Below are positions 1 to 38,295 of a stretch of 64,000 bases of DNA, in pieces (position 1 is the stretch's first letter; each line of letters opens with the position of its first letter). A model generated the notes under the pieces. That model saw only the letters and a program-made list of their open reading frames with translations, ran no database searches and had not been told where the DNA came from. This DNA is from Anaerolineae bacterium (lineage in GTDB: Bacteria; Chloroflexota; Anaerolineae; 4572-78; J111), in assembly GCA_020433805.1 (NCBI GenBank), contig JAGRBZ010000007.1, positions 249-64,248 on the forward strand. The letters are read 5' to 3'. A program made the position numbers and the translations under genes.

Positions 1-98
1 CACGGTCCCAGTGCCGGTTTAGTTGTATAGGCTTTTATACATTAAACTGTAGAATTTAGGGGAATAATGGAGAGATAAGCAGCGAATGAACGACCAAA

Positions 99-2738: not shown

Positions 2739-2753
2739 TTAAAGCTATGTGAG

Positions 2754-2826
2754 CGGGAGCGACGGGACTTGAACCCGCGATCTCCGGCTTGACAGGCCGG
2801 CGTGTTGACCACTACACCACGCCCCC
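2754..2826 (-). tRNA. tRNA-Asp (anticodon GTC)
   Basis: Reverse complement GGGGGCGTGGTGTAGTGGTCAACACGCCGGCCTGTCAAGCCGGAGATCGCGGGTTCAAGTCCCGTCGCTCCCG folds as a 73-nt cloverleaf. Anticodon loop is CTGTCAA and T-loop is TTCAAGT. CCA is not encoded. Confidence 0.93.
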
Positions 2827-2886
2827 AATTGAGTACCGATTAATATATTATAACGTCTATCAACCGATTTGGCAAAATTAACCAAA

Positions 2887-2957
2887 CTGGGGAACCAGGA
2901 TTCGAACCTGGATATACGGCTCCAAAGGCCGCTGTCCTACCATTAGACGATTCCCCA
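2887..2957 (-). tRNA. tRNA-Gln (anticodon TTG)
   Basis: Reverse complement TGGGGAATCGTCTAATGGTAGGACAGCGGCCTTTGGAGCCGTATATCCAGGTTCGAATCCTGGTTCCCCAG. It has the U1-A72 pair typical of bacterial tRNA-Gln, anticodon loop CTTTGGA and T-loop TTCGAAT. Confidence 0.9.
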
Positions 2958-2967
2958 CTATTTAAGG

Positions 2968-3040
2968 TGCCGAGGCCCAGACTTGAACTGGGGACCCTTT
3001 GATTTTCAGTCAAATGCTCTACCAACTGAGCTACCTCGGC
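2968..3040 (-). tRNA. tRNA-Phe (anticodon GAA)
   Basis: Reverse complement GCCGAGGTAGCTCAGTTGGTAGAGCATTTGACTGAAAATCAAAGGGTCCCCAGTTCAAGTCTGGGCCTCGGCA is a canonical 73-nt cloverleaf with anticodon loop CTGAAAA. Confidence 0.95.
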
Positions 3041-3099
3041 ATAAATAGTTTTAATTAAAACTAAAAGCTTTTTTGTTGCCAACTATATTCAATTTTAAC

Positions 3100-3133
3100 G
3101 ACCGGTAGTATAACATATTGCCTACTACCGGTC
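3100..3133 (-). terminator. Perfect 11-bp hairpin downstream of the integrase stop (possible terminator or protein-binding palindrome)
   Basis: gaccggtagta-taacatattgcc-tactaccggtc. There is no clear U-tract on either strand. Confidence 0.3.
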
Positions 3134-4278: not shown

Positions 4279-4494
4279 TATTTTGTCTCCTTAATATGCA
4301 ATAACTTTTTCTGTTGAGGTAGAACTGGGGGATGGTGTATGTCATTGCATAAAAGTGAGCAATTCCTTTCGTTTGGTGCCAGTGATTGACGGTGTAACGA
4401 GAGGGCTTGAGTTGTCAAGTAGATCTTTGTCAAGATAGCAAACCCTTAGAGGTGGGCAGGGTACCGAAATACCCTGCCCTAAGCTGAATAGCGA

Positions 4495-4562
4495 CAAAAC
4501 AAAAAACGGCCACCCTCGCCATGCAGGCAGGAGTGACCGTCTGGTTATCTTTGAGCTACCAT
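4495..4562 (-). ncRNA. Candidate small RNA inside the repeat (consensus-like promoter plus intrinsic terminator on the minus strand)
   Basis: Minus strand has TTGACA (4592-4597), a 16-nt spacer and TATCAT (4570-4575). A 14-bp hairpin follows (plus-strand arms 4507-4520 and 4526-4539, one mismatch), then TTTTTTGTTTTG (4495-4506). The same elements are conserved in copy B. No expression evidence. Confidence 0.3.
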
Positions 4563-4579
4563 AAAAGCTATGATAGAAT
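4551..4579 (+). promoter_or_regulatory. Candidate sigma70-type promoter with extended -10, driving a structured leader of about 175 nt upstream of the STAS-GHKL gene
   Basis: TTGAGC (4551-4556), 17-nt spacer, TGA-TAGAAT (4574-4579). The identical hexamers occur in repeat copy B (38095-38100 and 38118-38123). Hairpins lie downstream at about 4593-4613 and 4621-4656. Confidence 0.35.
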
Positions 4580-4760
4580 AGACACCAGCCTTGTCAACTG
4601 CTAAACCCAGTTGGCGGGGTTAGCCGCCGGTGAGTGTTCGTAGCACTCGCCGGTGGCGACGTGGGGTTTGCCCTATTCAACTCTGACTATATGGTACTCC
4701 TTGAATGGAGATGGGTCAAGCCTTTTTCCTACATTGATTTAGACTCGCGAACCTGCTTTT

Positions 4761-5627
4761 ATGAACCCTCAAGTCATTTTTCTTCACCCTTTGAATAAAG
4801 AACTTACCGGTGTCGAAGACTTTTACCAGCAATTGATTCAATCGTCCGGAGCGGCAAGTTTTGCTCTTGATTTCGGTCGGGTAACATATATTCAACCTCA
4901 TTACCTTATGGCCCTAAATATTGGGGTTCGTTATCTATTTCACCACAGCAAAAGCCCGATAGGTTTAAGAAATCTGAATGACCAGGTATTGTCCTATCTA
5001 GAGCGCATGAATTTTTTTTCGATCAGCAGCCAATGGATTGAATTACAGGGGAAACTTCTTGAAGATACGTGGAACCGAAATCCCGACACAGATAACTTAC
5101 TGGAATTAACGACCATTGCCAGTGAGGATGACGTTGTACAAATTGTCGAAAGAACAAGACGTGTCTGCGCTCCCCTCAACCTCTCTAACCTGCCACAGAT
5201 ATTGCAAATCCTAAGCGAATTATGTAGCAATGCTCTATATCATAGTGGTGACAACAAAAGCTGCGCTTTAATCCAGCGATATTGGCAACAAAGAAAGCGC
5301 AAAAGACGCGTCGTATGTATTGCCATCGGAGACATGGGGTGTGGAATCCGCGGAAGTCTAGCCACGCGATTTGGCGAATTCGGCAATGAACAGAGCGATT
5401 ATTTATCAGCGGCGCTTGATGGTAAGACCTCACGAGAGACAGGACGAGGGGGCTTAGGCCTGTCTACCATCGAGACAACGGTTGATCAAGAAGGCGGATA
5501 TTTGTGGCTCAGGTCCGAAACTGCGGCGATTTTCAGCCGCGGAAAATATCAGCGCCGAATATCACCTTCACTTTCCGCTATTCCTGGCGCCCAAGTTGTC
5601 GTCGAGTTTAGCGCCCCAATGAAGTAA
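4761..5627 (+). CDS. STAS-like N-terminal domain fused to a GHKL (HATPase_c, RsbW/SpoIIAB-like) ATPase or kinase
   Basis: N-terminus reads FALDFGRVTYIQPHYLMALNIG...LRNLNDQVLSYLERMNFF (STAS-like). C-terminus has N-box ELCSNALYHS, G1 IGDMGCGIRGS and G2 GRGGLGLSTI. No obvious Shine-Dalgarno. Confidence 0.75.
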   Translation: MNPQVIFLHPLNKELTGVEDFYQQLIQSSGAASFALDFGRVTYIQPHYLMALNIGVRYLFHHSKSPIGLRNLNDQVLSYLERMNFFSISSQWIELQGKLLEDTWNRNPDTDNLLELTTIASEDDVVQIVERTRRVCAPLNLSNLPQILQILSELCSNALYHSGDNKSCALIQRYWQQRKRKRRVVCIAIGDMGCGIRGSLATRFGEFGNEQSDYLSAALDGKTSRETGRGGLGLSTIETTVDQEGGYLWLRSETAAIFSRGKYQRRISPSLSAIPGAQVVVEFSAPMK

Positions 5628-7499: not shown

Positions 7500-10400
7500 A
7501 TGTTTGACCAACAATGGTATGACTCTCTGAAACGAAAAATTAGTGCTGCCGATATTGATGCTGAAATCGATAATCCCCGCCTGCTGCTGGAGGTTGAACT
7601 CGCATTTCGGTTACTGGAAATAATCGGCTTGACCGATGAACCGGCTGACGTTATCTGGTCGCTATTGAGCACCTTACCTGTGCCTCACCAGTCACTCACC
7701 AACCTGGACAATAACCAAAAACGGGCGCTGGCCAACGCTCGGGTCTTGCTCCATTTTGGACGCTTCGCCTGGCGCGATGCGCTCTACTGGTATAGCAAGC
7801 TACCCGCTCAATGGCGCGTTTACCAGGTTGACGCAGCTCAACCACTCAGCAAACCGGCACAACGCGAACCTAACGGCCCAGCCTATGTGACCAATCGAAT
7901 AGAAATTTACGACAACCTGTTGCATAAAAAACTCAGTTACAATAAACATTCATATGTCTTGGCAGGACCCGGGCGCATCACCTTCCGCACAACCCGCCAA
8001 CGGCCCCGAACAATCACCGTTGATCTGGATGCTGAAATGGTTTCCGCTGCGACAGCCGGGGATACCATCCCTCAAATTAACGGTGAGGAACGACCCCGCC
8101 AACCAATCATTGTGGATTGGGCCGGACTAAGAAACACGGCTGATATGCTGGATCAAAGAGCCGAGGAACGAAAGCCAGATCAAAACTCTGCTAAATGGAG
8201 CTGGCTGCTTGACCAGGTTATCCGGTTGCGATTTGTCGAAAAAGATGGTGGTTTGAGCCAGCTAAATGGCCATCCGCTCAAAATCGAGGGGATGCTGCAT
8301 CTGGCGGGTATGGTTGGCGCCGGTAAATCCACCTTAATGAAGCTGTTGGCCGCGCATGGAGTCCTTTCCGGCAACTGGCGCACCACTCTGGTGGTCGGCG
8401 ATACCATTACCGCCATCAATTTAGCCGATGAATTCAATCATCTTCTCTCTGACGGCAACTCACCGGTTGCGGTGCCCCTCTTGGGTCGCACTACCCGGCA
8501 TCACCATTTGCAGCGTCTTTACCAATCGAACAGCTTCCGCCCTGACCATTGGGGCTTACGCTGGTTGGATACTCGCTGCGCCATTCAGGGTTCTGCCGTT
8601 GAAAATGATCTAAAAGATGGGCCATTACAGCCCGGCGACGAACCATGTGAACGGTTGCAAGCCGGCCCACCTGATAAACCAGGCTCACTGCTACATTGTC
8701 CGCTCTTTGCCTTATGCCCTTCACGCCAACTTTACCACGATATTCCTGAGGCGATGATCTGGATTACAACGCCTGGGGCAATGGCAACATCCCATTTACC
8801 GGTAGCAACTGACCGGCGTCAGATGCTTTTAGGAGAGATGATTTACCATGAGGCAGATCTTGTAATTTTTGACGAGGTTGATACGGTTCAGCAATGGTTT
8901 GACAACGTCTATGCCTCCGACCAGTGGCTACTCGACGGGGGCCAGGGGCTGCTTGACGTGATGGATGTCAAAACCATCGAGGGTCTCAATCGCGGCTATC
9001 AAATCTCTCGACAGGGGCAGCGCTGGATTACGGCCGAACGGAGCGCCCGGCAGGTCGCCGAACAAGTATGTAGTATGCTGCGCGACCAGGCCGTGTTACG
9101 GGAGTGGCTTGGCGACCGCTACTTCACCGCGCACCGTTTATTTTTTGATTTAGCCTATCGTTTGCAGGTGAAGAGATCGGATGCTGATCAGGAAAAGATT
9201 AATCGGGTAGCTCTGGATTATTTTGACCAATTTCGCCGTGGATCTATTCTCCATCCGGGCGATAGCTATAACAAGGAACCGCTATCTCGACTTCTGGCCA
9301 TTGCCGACCAGGTCTTGGCCCGTGGCGGCAGTCTGGTTGATCGGGAGCGGGTTTTAGCTTTATGCAAGCAATGGTTAGAAGAATATGTACCTGATTCTAA
9401 GGCCATTGCCGGCCAACTGGCGCTTGAAAAAGCAGCCTGGCTTGAGAAGTGGCAGCATCGATCAGCGCGTCGAACCAGAAAACGGCCACCCCCTATGCCT
9501 GATGACTTGGAGACGTTGGCCGTCAGGCTTGAACTGGCGATTTCGGTCGCTATCCTTGAGGAAATGGTGCGAATCACCTTTGATGGTTGGCAACATGCAC
9601 CCTTGTTTATCACCAGTCAGATTGCCGATGATTATCGCTTGAGTCGCATTCCGCGTGACCTGGCCGGTGTCTTGCCCACCTCACCCACCGGTAGTCTCTT
9701 CGGATTTCAATACCTGGAAGAAGCTGGAGCCAGCCCGGATACAGCGGATGGTGAACAAATTCCGCTGAAAGTTCGCAGATTTTCTACGTTTCAATATCGC
9801 AACATCGGCCGCTGGTACGTTGAACACTTCCATGAATTACTCAGTGACCTTGGTTATCCCGGCCCTAATGTGTTGGCCATGTCCGGCACATCCTGGCTTC
9901 CTGACTCGGCAACATGGCATTTTTCGGTTGAACCCGCCGCTGTCCTGGAACCCACAGCGCACAGCCAGCAGGCCATCGAGACCAGCAAATTCTTCTTCAG
10001 GCCGGCTCGAGACAACGAGGGTAAACCCATCTTTGTGTCAGGCAGCGGGCGTTTGAGACAACAACTGGCTTTATTGGGCAAACAGTTGGCCGGCTATCCA
10101 GCCCCAAAGCAAGCTTTTTTGCTGCAAGAGTTGAAACGCCTCACCAATTTAGCCGAGCAGCAGCCGGAAGTGTGGGGCGACCGGGTTCGCCTACTCCTGT
10201 TCGTAAACTCATATGAGCAGGTACAGCCGGTGATGCAAGCCATCTTGAGCCAGCAGCCAGAGTGGAACCAGTTAACCTATGGACTGGTACGCAGTGCCGT
10301 CCCAACCCAGTCGAATGAATGGCAGTGGGCCAGGCTGGATGGTCAGACATTTATTAAGCATGATATAGAGCAATTCGGCCAGACTCAGGGTAACATTCTG

Positions 10401-23752: not shown

Positions 23753-25072
23753 CTTAGTAACAGAGGGGGTAGCCATTTGCCAGTATCTAGGGAGGAAGGA
23801 CGAAATGGGCAACAAGGTCGGGATCAGGTAGAGCTGGCAAAATAGGAAAAGGAACCCCCTGGTTCAAAATATGATCTAAAAAGATAAAACCTAATTGAAC
23901 TAAACTATGATAAAAGGCATCGGTACGCACCAGACAACGAAAGATGCCCGAAAAAATGGCTTCAATGCCTAACAAAATGAGCAGATAATAAGCCACCGCG
24001 GCAGCCAACAAAAAGCGTTCCAGGCGTTCAGGCGTACGAATACGGGTCCGATCCAACTGAAAGCCCCGGCTCTTGAAATCGGCAAAACAGGTTTCAATAG
24101 TAAAGCGGTGTTCATACCACTGTTTGGCCTCTTGTTGAGTGGGACAGTTGGTCACAAAAAAGATATGGTGTTGTTCGGTCTGGTGCCAGGCAATGAAAAT
24201 ATTCAAGCCTGCAACTGGCTGCTTATGAATGAAAGGACAGTGTAGCAACAAAGCTGTATCGGTTGAGGCAAGGCCCAATTCCTGCCCGATTTCCGTCAGC
24301 GACAGCCATTTACCATCAAAATAAGCCAGATGGCTGTGACTGGTACGACAGACAAACTGCCAGTTGGTTTGTTGAGTGAGCCAGGTTAAGACCTGTGTCC
24401 CATCAAACTCAGCATCAGCCACGAACACCACTTGGCTAGCAGTTGGCACTAAAGTGGCCACATATTGTAAAAGTTCAAGTTGTTCCTGTTGAGGGGTATG
24501 TCCTTTCTTGCCTTTCAAACAATGCCAGGCAATTGGAATGGCCCGCTTTTTGTAATAGACACTGACCAGCAAACACAGACAGCGACCGCCCAATTTGGTA
24601 CTATCCATCATTAACACCAGTGGCTGGTTGGGAGCTAGGCGCTGCAACATTTGCCTGGCTAAAGGTTATAGACAGACTTGACCTGCAACCATCGGCTTTT
24701 GATAAAACGTTCAAAACGGCTGACCAGGCTGGGTGTCTTGTAGTCGTACAGGACTTTTTGGGCTATCTTGGTCAACCGTCCATCCCGACTGCGTAACAAG
24801 CCTGTGACCAACATGGCCAGGCTCAGCCGATGTTCTGCCAGCAGGTAGGGAAATTGTTGGCTCAGTTCGTCGACTATGAAACGAAACAAGCGAGCGGCAT
24901 CACTATTATTCTGTCTTTTTTTGTCGTCGTTTACGACGGCGTTGATATTTGTTACATCGGGTCTGGTATTGTTTTCGGATCGTTTGCATTTCTCAGCTCC
25001 TTCATATTTTTTAGCTGTACTTTGCTAAACTTTATCCGTTTTTGTCAATTCCTGACCCCCTACGTTACTAAG
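23753..25072 (-). mobile_element. IS4-family insertion sequence (1320 bp) with imperfect terminal inverted repeats (IRs) and 8-bp target duplication
   Basis: Ends are CTTAGTAACAGAGGGGG (23753-) and the reverse complement of CCCCCTACGTTACTAAG (-25072). ATTTTCCT flanks both sides directly (23745-23752 and 25073-25080). The transposase carries a Y-x2-R-x3-E-x6-K motif (YEHRFTIETCFADFK). Confidence 0.85.
23787..24889 (-). pseudogene. IS4-family DDE transposase, split by a 1-nt deletion
   Basis: ORFs 24659-24889 and 23787-24650 are one gene. Copy 2 reads ...VYEPLARQMLQR... continuously. This copy reads ...VYNL* and then restarts at MLQR in another frame (aacctttagcc versus gagcccttggcc). Confidence 0.75.
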
Positions 25073-32090: not shown

Positions 32091-32446
32091 GTGGGTAATT
32101 CTCGTGAAATTGGTAGATCATTGCCAAAACTACGTATAGGCTATGACACCGTCGTCGACCCCATTACCACTACGTTTTTAATTCTAAACCCTCGATATCA
32201 TTCGAAACAAAACCCTTGAACCAACCTTTCTCATCTAATATGCTGCTCCTGTAACCACAAAATCGACGTCTTCTAATTGCTCTTGTGCGGCCAAGTTTCT
32301 GACCATAGGTTCCAAATTACCACTTTTTTGGGTCCGTAACGCCAATATTTTTGGCCGTAAAACACAAACGAGAGGTATTGACCCAACTCGCCAGGAATGA
32401 TACGCTGACAAAAATCTCTAATGAAATTACGGGACAGGAGGCCAGC

Positions 32447-33364
32447 GTGAATATCGAGGCTTTTCTACAGTTTCTGCAGGCGGAAGATCGGGCCGAGCGG
32501 ACCATTGCCGGCTATGCGCGTGATCTGACCAAATTTCTGGCATGGTTTGAACAAACCACCGGCCGGCAACCCCAGCCGGCGATTGTCACCCCGCTAGACA
32601 TCCGCGAATATCGCCGCCATTTGCAGCAGGAAAAACGGCTCAAACCGGCCAGCGTCAATCGCCGTCTGGCCGCGCTGCGGGTCTATTTCCGCTGGGCTAC
32701 CGAAACCGGTCTCATTGCCGCCAACCCGGCGGCATCCATCAAGATGCTGCCCCAAATCGGGCAAGGTCCCCGCTGGCTGGAGCGGGACGAAGCCTACGCC
32801 CTGATCCGGGAAGCGGATGCGACCATTCGATTGGCCAAGGCTAAAGAACTGACCCCCTCAGCCAATCTGGCCACCCGCAACGCCGCGATTTTGTCGTTGT
32901 TGCTGCACGGATTGCGAGTGTCGGAAGTGTGTGCGCTACGTCTGGAAGATGTAACCATCAGGGAGCGAAGCGGCAAGGTAGTGGTTCATGCCGGCAAGGG
33001 CAACAAATACCGGGAGGTGCCGATCAATGTCGATGCCCGCCAGACCGTGTCGGCCTGGTTAAAGGTACGGCTGGATGATAACGGCATCTACCTTTTCACC
33101 GGACGGCGCGATCAACAGTTGCAACCCCGGGCCGTTCAGCGCTTTTTGGATCGGCTGGCCCGGCGGGCCGGTCTTGATCCACAGAAAGTGACGCCCCACG
33201 CCTGCCGCCATACCTTCGGCAAGAGTTTGGTCGATGCCGGCGAGTCGCTGGACCGGGTAGCGATCTTGATGGGGCATAATGACCTGTCGACGACTGCCCT
33301 TTACACCACCCCCTCGCGGACGGACCTGGCCAGTGCGGTTGAGAAAATTGCCTGGCAGGATTGA
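32447..33364 (+). CDS. XerC/XerD-like tyrosine recombinase
   Basis: LHGLRVSEV (Arg), HACRHTFG (H-x-x-R), GHNDLSTTALYT (Tyr). Start proposed at GTG 32447 (GGAGG 7 nt upstream); the longest ORF starts at 32351. Confidence 0.88.
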   Translation: MNIEAFLQFLQAEDRAERTIAGYARDLTKFLAWFEQTTGRQPQPAIVTPLDIREYRRHLQQEKRLKPASVNRRLAALRVYFRWATETGLIAANPAASIKMLPQIGQGPRWLERDEAYALIREADATIRLAKAKELTPSANLATRNAAILSLLLHGLRVSEVCALRLEDVTIRERSGKVVVHAGKGNKYREVPINVDARQTVSAWLKVRLDDNGIYLFTGRRDQQLQPRAVQRFLDRLARRAGLDPQKVTPHACRHTFGKSLVDAGESLDRVAILMGHNDLSTTALYTTPSRTDLASAVEKIAWQD

Positions 33365-36294: not shown

Positions 36295-36861
36295 ATGGAT
36301 GACAAGCTACTTAAAAGATATCTTGAATACGCAAACACCGAAGAGTCCTTTGCAGTTCTCTTTGTGAAGAAGCATCTCGCTCAAGCAAAAGGGCATTGGG
36401 TAGATATTGTCGATTGCCGACGCTATGAGATGTCCTCGGATAATTTACATTTCCGATTCGTTGTAGGCCGCCTGTATAAGAGAAAAATAAAACCGCAGTA
36501 TCCCTCAAAATCCGCATACACCATTGATGGCAAATTTGACGAACGTGGATATTACTTGATGACACGAGCCATAACGTGGGAAACCGCACACAAGGACATA
36601 GAGCAGCAACAGTCAAAGAACGTGGCGGTGTCGAAATTCAAGATAACAGGCGTGAGCTACGATAAGAATCGAGGCAACAAGAACTATTTTCGGGACGACG
36701 CACCACCCGAGATAAAGGCTCTTGCAAGGGATCTTAACGACCGTACAGACCCACTGTGGGACAAGGCCATGCAATATGTTAACAAGCCGGAGTTTGTTTA
36801 TGAAATAAAACAGGTTTCGATGGTAAAGCGGTGTTCATACCAATATTTGGCCTGCTGTTGA
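36295..36861 (+). CDS. Orphan hypothetical protein; its 3' end runs into the truncated IS4 copy
   Basis: AT-rich ORF with no motif recognised. The last roughly 18 codons are read from IS-derived sequence (homology to 24084 onward starts near 36806), so the native C-terminus is probably lost. Confidence 0.4.
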   Translation: MDDKLLKRYLEYANTEESFAVLFVKKHLAQAKGHWVDIVDCRRYEMSSDNLHFRFVVGRLYKRKIKPQYPSKSAYTIDGKFDERGYYLMTRAITWETAHKDIEQQQSKNVAVSKFKITGVSYDKNRGNKNYFRDDAPPEIKALARDLNDRTDPLWDKAMQYVNKPEFVYEIKQVSMVKRCSYQYLACC

Positions 36862-37795
36862 GTAGAACAGTTCGTCAAAAAAAAGATATGTCGTTGCTCA
36901 ACCTGATGTCAGGCAATGAAAATGTTCAAGCCTATAACCGGCTGTTTATGGATGAAAGGAGACTGGAACAACAAGGCTGTTTGGGCTGAGGCCAGGGCCA
37001 GTTCCTGCACAATTTCCGTCAGGGAGAGCCATTTACCCGCAAAGTAAGCCAGATGGCTTTGGCTGGTACGACAGACAAACTGCCAGTTGGTCTGCTCAGT
37101 GAGCCAGGTTAGCACTTGTGTGCCATCAAATTCAGCATCAGCCACAAAGACCACTTGGCTGGCGGCTGGTAATAAAGTGGCCACATATTGTAAAAGTTCA
37201 AGTTGTTCTTGTTGCGGTGTGTGTCCTTTCTTGCCTTTCAAACAACGCCAAGCAAGCGGAATGGCTCGTTTTTTGTAATAGACACTTACCAGCAAACACA
37301 GACAACGACCGCCCAGTTTGGTACTGTCCAGCATTATCACAAGTGGCTGGTTGGGAGCGATGCGCTGCAACATCTGCCTGGCCAAGGGCTCATAGACCGG
37401 CTTGACCTGCAACCACCGGCTTTTGATAAAGCGTTCGAAACGGCTGATCAGGCTGGGCGTCTTGTAGTCGTACAGTACCTTTTGGGCTATCTTGGTCAAC
37501 CGTCCATCCCGGCTGCGCAACAGACCGGTGACCATCATGGCCAGGCTCAAGCGATGTTCCGGCAGCAGCTTTGGTAATTGGTTGCTCAGTTCGCTGGCTA
37601 TGAAGCGAAACAGGCGGGCCGCATCACTCTTATTTTGCCTTTTTTTGTTTGTCGTTTTCGACGGCGCTGCTGTTTGTTACATCGGGTCTGGTATCGTTCT
37701 CGGATCGTTTGCATCTGTTAGCTCCTTCATATTTTTGAGGGTACTTTGCTAAACTTTATCCCTTTTTGTCAATTCCAGACCCCTACGTTATTAAA
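36806..37795 (-). mobile_element. Truncated second copy of the IS4-family element (lacks about 330 bp, including one terminal IR and the transposase C-terminus)
   Basis: Aligns to 24084-25072 of copy 1, roughly 85-90 percent identity by eye. Transposase ORF 36909-37550 is continuous across the copy-1 frameshift site. Terminal ...ccctacgttattaa corresponds to ...ccccctacgttactaag. Confidence 0.8.
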
Positions 37796-37992: not shown

Positions 37993-38295
37993 GAGGGCAG
38001 GTGGGGCTTTGACGCACCCCACCCTGAGCTGAATAGCGACAAAACAAAAACGGCCACCCTCGCCATGCAGGCAGGAGTGACCGTCTGGTTATCTTTGAGC
38101 TACTATAGAAGCTATGATAGAATAGACACCAGCCCTGTCAACTGCTAAACCCAGTTGGCGGGGTTAGCCGCCGGTGAGTGTTCGTAGCACTTGCCGGTGG
38201 CGAATTGGGATTTGTCCTATTCAACTCTTACTATATGGTACCCCTTGATTGGAGATGGGTCAAGCCTTTTTTATATTGTTTCAGTCTCGTGAATT
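37993..38295. repeat. Direct repeat copy B (partner of 4452-4752)
   Basis: Same order of elements as copy A: an edge hairpin with different sequence, A-run, long hairpin, TTGAGC-17-TAGAAT, two leader hairpins, ...ggagatgggtcaagcctttttt. Confidence 0.9.

Follow-up and report, generated by a model that had tools for sequence, protein, structure and literature searches.

A candidate two-RNA regulatory module beside recombinase genes of defence-cargo islands in Chloroflexota

The stretch of DNA analysed here (64,000 nt of an Anaerolineae bacterium, contig JAGRBZ010000007.1; hereafter the window) carries near its left end a tyrosine recombinase gene, a CapK/CapS-pPIWI-RE cargo operon and, between them, a short cassette that we refer to as the module. 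The recombinase gene points away from the module toward three tRNA genes, and on the other side the capK start codon, at 4761, lies ~40 nt past the module. The module occurs a second time in the window; copies A and B are 92% identical over 281 nt (4471-4751 versus 38016-38293), and their flanks are dissimilar. The initial annotation, made from the DNA letters alone, regarded the repeat as a structured regulatory module with a hint of selection on its structure. This view is upheld: the architecture recurs across genomes with strong covariation, which marks it as a selected RNA module and sets it apart from a repeat that arose by chance. The module appears to specify two overlapping RNAs, one from each strand, that may control the neighbouring recombinase gene.

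Structure of the two predicted RNAs

Judged by its base pairing, the best-supported feature of the module is the predicted plus-strand RNA that we call RNA-P, which would start at promoter P1 and fold into two long hairpins (Table 1). The promoter and the two-hairpin leader had both been described in the initial annotation and are present in both copies. For the 97-nt RNA-P of copy A, the predicted folding free energy is -57 kcal/mol (z = -7.2). Each of two covariance models was made from 19 copies; R1 describes the plus RNA and R2 the left unit on the minus strand, and R1 scores copy A of the window at 112.9 bits. Across 33 distinct RNA-P sequences, standard pairs fill 97.7% of the cells, compared with 77% in shuffles, and two-sided (compensatory) changes are seen in 21 of the 26 pairs. 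None of 500 shuffles reached these pairing measures, and slid controls fall to 35-44% paired. The absence of covariation in a wider alignment had been named beforehand as a point against a selected structure; the covariation found there is strong for the plus-strand hairpins. The strand is specific as well, with 143 G.U cells to 8 A.C cells and a plus-sense fold that is better than the minus-sense fold in 43 of 43 loci (mean -47.3 versus -34.1 kcal/mol).

Nearly every copy keeps the extended -10 element of P1 (TGnTAnAAT), even the distant ones, which have no -35 element and in which the minus-strand terminator T, described below, abuts it. We searched the module copies for a conserved open reading frame (ORF) and found none, and their loops and spacers vary; a 47-codon ORF in one copy (L003) is not kept in the others. 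A reading of GCCGGTAGGTG as an ops/RfaH-like element, suggested by a resemblance, was set aside.

The second RNA, RNA-M, would be transcribed from the minus strand, starting at promoter P3 at the right boundary of the module. The P3 pattern, TTGACN-16..18-TANNNT, is found at a fixed distance in 37 of 50 loci compared with 1 of 50 on the opposite strand; in distant copies the -10 is commonly TATAAT and TG-extended, and the promoter often reads TTGACA-17-(TG)nTATAAT. An RNA that starts at P3 would be antisense to all of RNA-P before it reaches T. Its predicted fold is consistent in the close clade (z = -8.1 for copy A) and comprises, from 5' to 3', the closing helix P0, imperfect complements of hairpins 2 and 1, a CUGG/CCAG helix that encloses hairpin hpP1, the terminator T, the 3' strand of P0 and hairpin L. 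Three elements lay beyond what the initial annotation had listed, namely P3, the long-range inverted repeat CTGAATAG (4484-4491)/CTATTCAA (4673-4680) that forms part of P0, and the integrase context.

Counts of G.U against A.C on the minus sense are 57:2 for T, 23:1 for L, 17:3 for hpP1 and 14:2 for P0 (consensus fold), a bias that indicates that all four are minus-sense RNA structures. T has the makeup of an intrinsic terminator, a GC-rich hairpin followed directly by a U-run, and was already recognized as such in the initial annotation (4541-4505, then UUUUUUGUUUUG). It is kept in at least 40 loci with different stems, and its minus-sense fold is the better one in 36 of 42 loci. In distant copies a hairpin and U-run occupy the equivalent place with stem sequences that are unrelated, and T stands ~30-40 nt before a Shine-Dalgarno sequence and ATG, as read from the sequences. 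The arms of P0 vary in a compensatory manner (CTGAATAG/CTATTCAG, CTAAAGAG/CTCTTTAG and CCGAACAG/CTGTTCGG); cognate arms out-pair non-cognate arms (p = 0.007), and 35 of 46 loci favour the minus sense. P0 is weak or missing in the most distant copies.

Hairpin L is the edge hairpin that had been noted to differ in sequence between copies while folding in both (GGGCAGGGTA/TACCCTGCCC in copy A, CAGGTGGGG/CCCCACCCTG in copy B), which had been read as a hint of selection on structure. The hint is supported by compensatory changes, which affect several of its eleven predicted pairs (for example GGGCAGGG/CCCTGCCC versus GGGTGGGG/CCCCACCC and GGGCGGAG/CTCCGCCC), and by the strand bias given above; for copy A, z = -5.0. 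The pair types seen in hpP1 are UA/UG, CG/UG/UA and UA/CG/UG. Because RNA-level conservation extends past T, to hairpin L and the 3' strand of P0, some transcripts would be expected to pass T.

Two observations on the promoter regions of distant copies may be added. In L179, L180, L195, L205, L207, L208 and L210, the P3 spacer is a 6-9-bp inverted repeat that differs per locus (for example ATACCATG-AAATC-CATGGTAT); this repeat, which is not seen in the window's clade, may serve as an operator or, if the plus RNA is longer there, form its third hairpin. In a distant subgroup (L191, L192, L196 and L202), a TTGACA lies 7-8 nt from TGnTATAAT and is conserved, though too near for a -35 element.

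Table 1. Predicted features of the module and its flank, by position in the window
Feature	Position	Strand	Description
tRNA-Phe, tRNA-Gln, tRNA-Asp	2753..3040	-	Just downstream of the integrase; tRNA-proximal island end
Tyrosine recombinase, 362 aa	3190..4278	-	Pfam Phage_integrase 4.6e-26; start 176 nt past hairpin L; co-directional with RNA-M
Copy A of the module	4454-4720		Cassette of ~270 bp (~267-bp)
Hairpin L	4454..4479	-	GGGCAGGGTA-CCGAAA-TACCCTGCCC; last RNA-M element before the integrase 5' untranslated region
P0 3' strand and U-run of T	4483..4504	-	GCUAUUCAGC and UUUUUUGUUUUG; pairs with 4663-4684 in minimum-free-energy and consensus folds
Terminator/attenuator T	4505..4541	-	GC-rich stem, inner 4-bp helix, U-run to 4497
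Promoter P1	4551..4579	+	TTGAGC-17-(TG)A-TAGAAT, extended -10 TGATAGAAT; predicted start ~4586
Hairpin hpP1	4558..4578	-	Palindromic P1 spacer CUAUCAUAGCUUUUAUGGUAG; close clade only
P2 (minus promoter of the initial annotation)	4570..4597	-	TTGACA-16-TATCAT; outside the conserved core
RNA-P	4586..4682	+	Hairpin 1, linker UAG, hairpin 2, tail with CUAUUCAA; ~95-100 nt
Hairpin 1	4587-4621	+	Core GTCAACTG/CAGTTGGC
Hairpin 2	4623-4657	+	GCCGCCGGTGAGTG/CACTCGCCGGTGGC
RNA-M 5' end (P0 5' strand)	4663..4684	-	GUUGAAUAGGGCAAACC
Promoter P3	4691..4719	-	TTGACC-17-TACCAT; right module boundary, convergent with P1; predicted start ~4684; both copies
Copy B of the module	37996-38264	+	L ~37998-38026, T ~38049-38085, P1 38095-38123, RNA-P 38130-38226, P3 38263-38235

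Recombinase neighbours, island carriage and distribution

At 12 or more of the first 21 loci, the gene directly to the left, on the minus strand, encodes a tyrosine recombinase. When 51 loci are taken together, the left-hand ORF encodes a tyrosine recombinase at 17 of them and a large serine recombinase at 5, with FtsK/SpoIIIE and other mobile-element genes also represented; one additional serine recombinase neighbour was found in another family of the phylum. The right-hand genes, in contrast, are never syntenic, and the first of them varies both in orientation (24 loci plus, 19 minus) and, from copy to copy, in identity. This arrangement indicates that the consistent partner of the module is the recombinase or mobile-element gene to its left, which is co-directional with the predicted minus RNA. 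The initial annotation had suggested an antisense RNA controlling gene 1, the first right-hand gene; an antisense relation does exist in the predicted pair, between RNA-M and RNA-P, but gene 1 is not the consistent partner. In three distant copies (L196, L202 and L191), the gene after T begins with a lipoprotein-type signal peptide and is not a recombinase.

Beside the two other complete modules of this genome (G000), the first cargo gene encodes an 887-aa protein with a Cas10/Cmr2 second palm domain (contig C376; L147 2397-5060) or a 708-aa Piwi-domain protein (contig C1025; L148 5872-7998), so that these islands also carry defence-type cargo. The order module, integrase, tRNA, all in one direction, is found in five loci (the window, L148, L151, L152 and L144), and the integrase gene stops 140-190 nt short of the 5' end of the tRNA. 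Which tRNA is present goes with the integrase clade: Phe in the window, Cys twice (integrases 86% identical) and Arg(CCT) twice (78% identical). The integrase thus lies upstream of the tRNA gene, unlike the classical arrangement, in which it adjoins the 3' end of the tRNA. The gap from the integrase stop to tRNA-Phe contains an 18-nt perfect palindrome at 3046-3063 (TAGTTTTAATTAAAACTA) and a hairpin with an 11-bp stem at 3100-3133 (GACCGGTAGTA...TACTACCGGTC), which may be an integrase terminator or an attachment (att) region. In L009/L146 (G005:C164, ~8520-9023), the module is cut inside L and only the 3' arm ACCCGGCCC is left, ~90 nt from tRNA-Gln/tRNA-Asp, with the integrase and tRNA-Phe gone; this locus seems to have arisen by deletion from an island of the type found in the window.

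Within the window, a second tyrosine recombinase (32351-33364, plus strand, 337 aa, Phage_integrase 1.8e-32) lies inside the interval between copies A and B with no module adjoining it. An IS4-family element or remnant is present in two copies, 84-87% identical (23787-25014 and 36807-37739), one of which is directly left of copy B, in the position taken by the integrase elsewhere.

The module travels with islands. When genome G006 is compared with G007, a genome of the same genus, nothing in G007 corresponds to the integrase, to the module or to the next 20 kb or more, and synteny resumes exactly at tRNA-Arg; G006 has one module copy and no partial copy within +/-20 kb. The comparison of the two genomes and the single G006 copy together imply that the module is neither an att site nor a host gene. 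A host small RNA (sRNA) gene serving as a common integration target was ruled out in the same way, because the module is absent from G007, the island boundary is a tRNA gene and the right-hand genes are never syntenic. Beside the G006 island lies a ~120-nt repeat (L144 3533-3656, G006:C8) with more than 40 matches across G007 on both strands, which is probably an element resembling a miniature inverted-repeat transposable element (MITE) and unrelated to the module.

Modules of one genome are homogenised. The islands at C376 and C1025 share only 274 bp, at 96%, and two G025 loci share 278 bp, at 97%; A is 97.5% identical to C1153 up to the contig end. Co-resident copies overall share only 274-281 bp at 92-97%, and their integrases are only 23%, 36% and 31% identical. 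In an orthologous metagenome island (L173), the module is 83% identical and the integrase gene 80% identical at the DNA level. Module and integrase have diverged alike there, which implies that co-resident islands have homogenised or exchanged a cassette that is not in itself hyper-conserved. The idea that the module is hyper-conserved compared with the integrase is thereby ruled out, the contrast existing only between co-resident islands.

A search for further copies, proposed in the initial annotation, brought the number in this genome to five. At the family level, 11 of 31 genomes have the module, with one to three copies each. Of 151 genomes sampled from the class, 17 give an R1 match, and R1 also detects the module in two more families of the phylum, where a single genome can have as many as five copies. 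The exact core pattern matches nine metagenome contigs and gives zero matches in viral contigs, and the loose pattern GCAGGCAGGNNYGACCGTC gave chance matches only against the genome contigs. A cyanobacterial origin was ruled out, as HIP1 is not enriched.

Proposed control of the recombinase and alternative readings

With moderate confidence, we propose that the module is the regulatory region of integrative, mostly tRNA-associated islands that carry defence cargo in Chloroflexota, and that its two overlapping RNAs exert countertranscript/attenuator control over the recombinase. If both are transcribed as predicted, RNA-P would be a plus-strand RNA of two long hairpins made from P1, and RNA-M would run from P3 for ~190 nt to T, or farther upon read-through, passing the full complement of RNA-P, P1, T, the 3' strand of P0 and L on its way into the recombinase gene. 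RNA-P acting as a countertranscript, together with head-on transcription from P1 and P3, would set the fraction of P3 transcripts that pass T and become recombinase mRNA. Cutting of the RNA-P/RNA-M duplex or of P0 by RNase III would be a possible added route, and the outcome would be a gating of island excision and mobility. We favour antisense/attenuator control, with a part for promoter interference, because the parts are ordered as in plasmids pIP501 and pT181 (see below) and because T stands so shortly before the Shine-Dalgarno sequence and start codon in distant copies. The ~65-nt minus-strand sRNA of the initial annotation would probably be the 3' end of the ~190-nt P3 transcript, although a short product from P2 may also be made in the window's clade.

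A broader claim is put forward more tentatively. The two RNAs might be an undescribed and widespread Chloroflexota pair, made up of a countertranscript with two hairpins (~100 nt) and a leader with several helices (~190-240 nt) that a long-range helix closes. Such a pair could act as a protein-free toggle in which one RNA governs the mobility of all co-resident islands, a shared 'immunity' circuit for tyrosine- and serine-recombinase elements.

Several observations weigh against recombinase control by an RNA pair. In more distant copies the gene after T is sometimes a lipoprotein-like gene, a C5 methylase or a T5orf172 protein and not a recombinase, and copy B has no recombinase at all, its left side consisting of IS4 transposase remnants (36909-37550). 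T is strong, so that a separate promoter, invisible to the consensus scan, may drive the recombinase. The palindromic spacers hpP1 and those of P3 could be protein operators rather than RNA elements. Hairpin 2 of copy A has no U-tail, so that P1 may also read into the CapK/CapS-pPIWI-RE operon, as the initial annotation supposed; over the family, a U-tail after hairpin 2 showed no relation to cargo orientation (p = 0.93, by a noisy method). Finally, no convincing conserved anti-terminator or preemptor that would link binding of RNA-P to T emerged from truncated-leader folds, in which the base of T pairs with a CUGG segment that also coexists with T (18 loci scorable, no control). One candidate preemptor, the hairpin 2 antisense GGCAGGUG paired with the 5' arm of T (CCUGCC), was seen by eye in close copies only and was rejected because it fails in L182, the distant copy likewise inspected by eye.

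The wiring drawn in the initial annotation is unlikely but deserves to be weighed first. There, P1 and P2 are divergent promoters, the ~65-nt minus sRNA runs from P2 to T, and the plus leader controls gene 1 (CapK/CapS-pPIWI-RE) in cis. P2 is present at 4597-4570 as described and, with 11 of 12 positions, fits the consensus better than any other site in the window; its TAnnnT is kept in 17 of 21 close copies, as read from the alignment, and the promoter may be active in the window's clade. The missing U-tail in copy A and the nearness of capK also fit this wiring, as does a first right-hand gene on the plus strand in 5 of 11 well-resolved loci. However, RNA-P and P1 account for both elements of P2, whose -35 falls within stem 1 of RNA-P and whose -10 is the extended -10 of P1 read in reverse complement, and P2 is absent from distant copies that keep P1, P3, T and RNA-P. 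Because P3 is widely conserved and P2 is kept only in the close clade, the conserved arrangement would be convergent, P1 against P3, and the divergent picture does not hold for the family. The right-hand genes that such a leader would control differ in identity and orientation, and P0 and L would make sense only on a transcript that starts at P3 and passes T.

The homogenisation of co-resident modules raises the question of action in trans. RNA-P, RNA-M or both could be chiefly trans-acting island sRNAs, mediating cross-talk or 'immunity' among co-resident islands or acting on host targets, with cis control of the recombinase secondary, which strikes us as somewhat less probable again. Modules of one genome's islands are 92-97% identical amid unrelated surroundings, so that an RNA made by one island could pair with leaders belonging to the others; there are 1-5 copies per genome, and copy B persists without a recombinase. 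Against this, no target has been identified, the fixed position and orientation by the left-hand gene point to a cis role, and gene conversion between homologous stretches would give equal identity without selection.

That the module is instead a DNA-level element is improbable. It might be an att or recombination site, as the initial annotation had mooted, a homology anchor through which integrase and cargo are exchanged, or a MITE whose terminal inverted repeats (~25 bp) are the P0 arms, the RNA folds being incidental. The direct repeats A and B bracket 33.5 kb, the inverted repeat CTGAATAGCGACAAAAC ... GTTTGCCCTATTCA flanks ~190 bp, homology ends at sharp boundaries, and the G005 module is cut inside L and joined to tRNA-Gln. 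Yet a DNA site would not be expected to favour G.U on one strand in all of its helices, and tyrosine and serine recombinases, both of them neighbours, would not share one. As to att sites, the G006 island carries its single module copy and ends at tRNA-Arg, the module has no similarity to tRNA, and no tRNA-derived repeat was found in the window. As to a MITE or insertion sequence (IS) end, no match to a known one was found; P0 lies inside the conserved unit with L and P3 outside its arms, and the module's place relative to recombinase genes is always fixed, not dispersed. No target-site duplication was seen by eye in the window sequence at either set of ends.

RNA-primed replication or copy-number control of the excised island, in the manner of ColE1 RNA II/RNA I, would share the sense/antisense pair with stable stem-loops and the convergent promoters, but is scarcely credible given that no replication initiator or origin features lie nearby, that the predicted minus RNA stops at a terminator placed just before a recombinase gene or another gene, and that the pattern is not found in viral contigs.

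To our knowledge, little is understood of how genomic and defence islands choose between staying integrated and excision, except in a few model phages and integrative and conjugative elements, and in Chloroflexota the matter is unknown. A module this compact and recognisable would mark island borders in phyla dominated by metagenome-assembled genomes, and R1 finds it across classes. It points to a possible RNA-only switch for recombinase expression, and it is a clear case of concerted evolution of a noncoding regulatory cassette among otherwise unrelated mobile elements. RNA-P, given its compensatory pairs, is a well-supported candidate for a new structured RNA family.

Relation to known systems

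Cis-antisense control in a mobile element is a known kind of system. What we have not found described, by Rfam and in the literature searched, is this RNA pair, the P0/L architecture, its place at the junction of integrase and cargo in defence islands, and homogenisation across unrelated islands. Rfam 15 returned nothing but the three tRNAs over the whole window, and a permissive scan of 4300-4850 gave RybB as its best match (22.4 bits against a gathering threshold of 40, E = 0.033), which reflects a generic hairpin and U-run, the rest having E > 0.4. The literature search found no description of such a module.

The closest likeness in the order of parts is to the plasmid systems pIP501 RNAIII/RNAII-repR, pT181 RNAI/II-repC and pAMbeta1, which also use a ~100-nt antisense RNA of long stem-loops. 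In pIP501 and pT181 leaders, the order is sense promoter, antisense target, antisense promoter on the other strand, terminator and gene; in the module, the corresponding predicted order of P3, RNA-P complement, P1, T and gene is conserved. The plasmids control a replication initiator, whereas the module stands before a recombinase or other mobile-element gene of a chromosomal island. Unlike pIP501 and pT181, the module has P0 and hairpin L after the terminator, and its truncated-leader folds (18 loci scorable) gave no consistent alternative preemptor pairing. The likeness is one of layout alone, with no sequence or Rfam relation.

Coliphages 186 and P2 (pR/pL and Pe/Pc, with a lysogenic transcript that carries int) resemble the module in having convergent promoters ~100 bp apart by the integrase gene of a tRNA-integrating element, and transcriptional interference of the kind seen there would be expected at the module. 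The phage switches encode protein repressors (CI/Apl and C/Cox), whereas the module has no ORF and its conserved features are RNA helices.

In IS10/Tn10, RNA-IN and RNA-OUT likewise place a stable stem-loop antisense RNA from an opposing promoter over the 5' end of the mRNA for a mobility enzyme, and 'multicopy inhibition', in which copies in one cell act on one another, fits the homogenised modules. The overlap in the module is ~100 nt and far upstream of the start codon with a terminator between, so that control would act on transcription or stability and not on ribosome binding. Retroregulation of lambda int (sib, RNase III) is a further parallel, since RNA structure and terminator read-through set the output of integrase there, and the long duplexes of P0 and RNA-P/RNA-M are plausible RNase III substrates. 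The sib element, however, lies 3' of int, beyond attP, and the module lies wholly 5' of its gene.

The integron platform (intI, Pint/Pc, attI) has a tyrosine recombinase transcribed away from a short promoter region that is followed by variable cargo, as the module does. An integron identity was rejected because the integrases are not IntI, scoring 41.6-45.8 bits on TIGR02249 against a cut-off of 265 bits and at most 39.1 on PRK15417 against 435. The cargo beside the module consists of long multi-gene defence operons in either orientation, and the module, unlike the integron platform, is common to unrelated tyrosine and serine recombinases.

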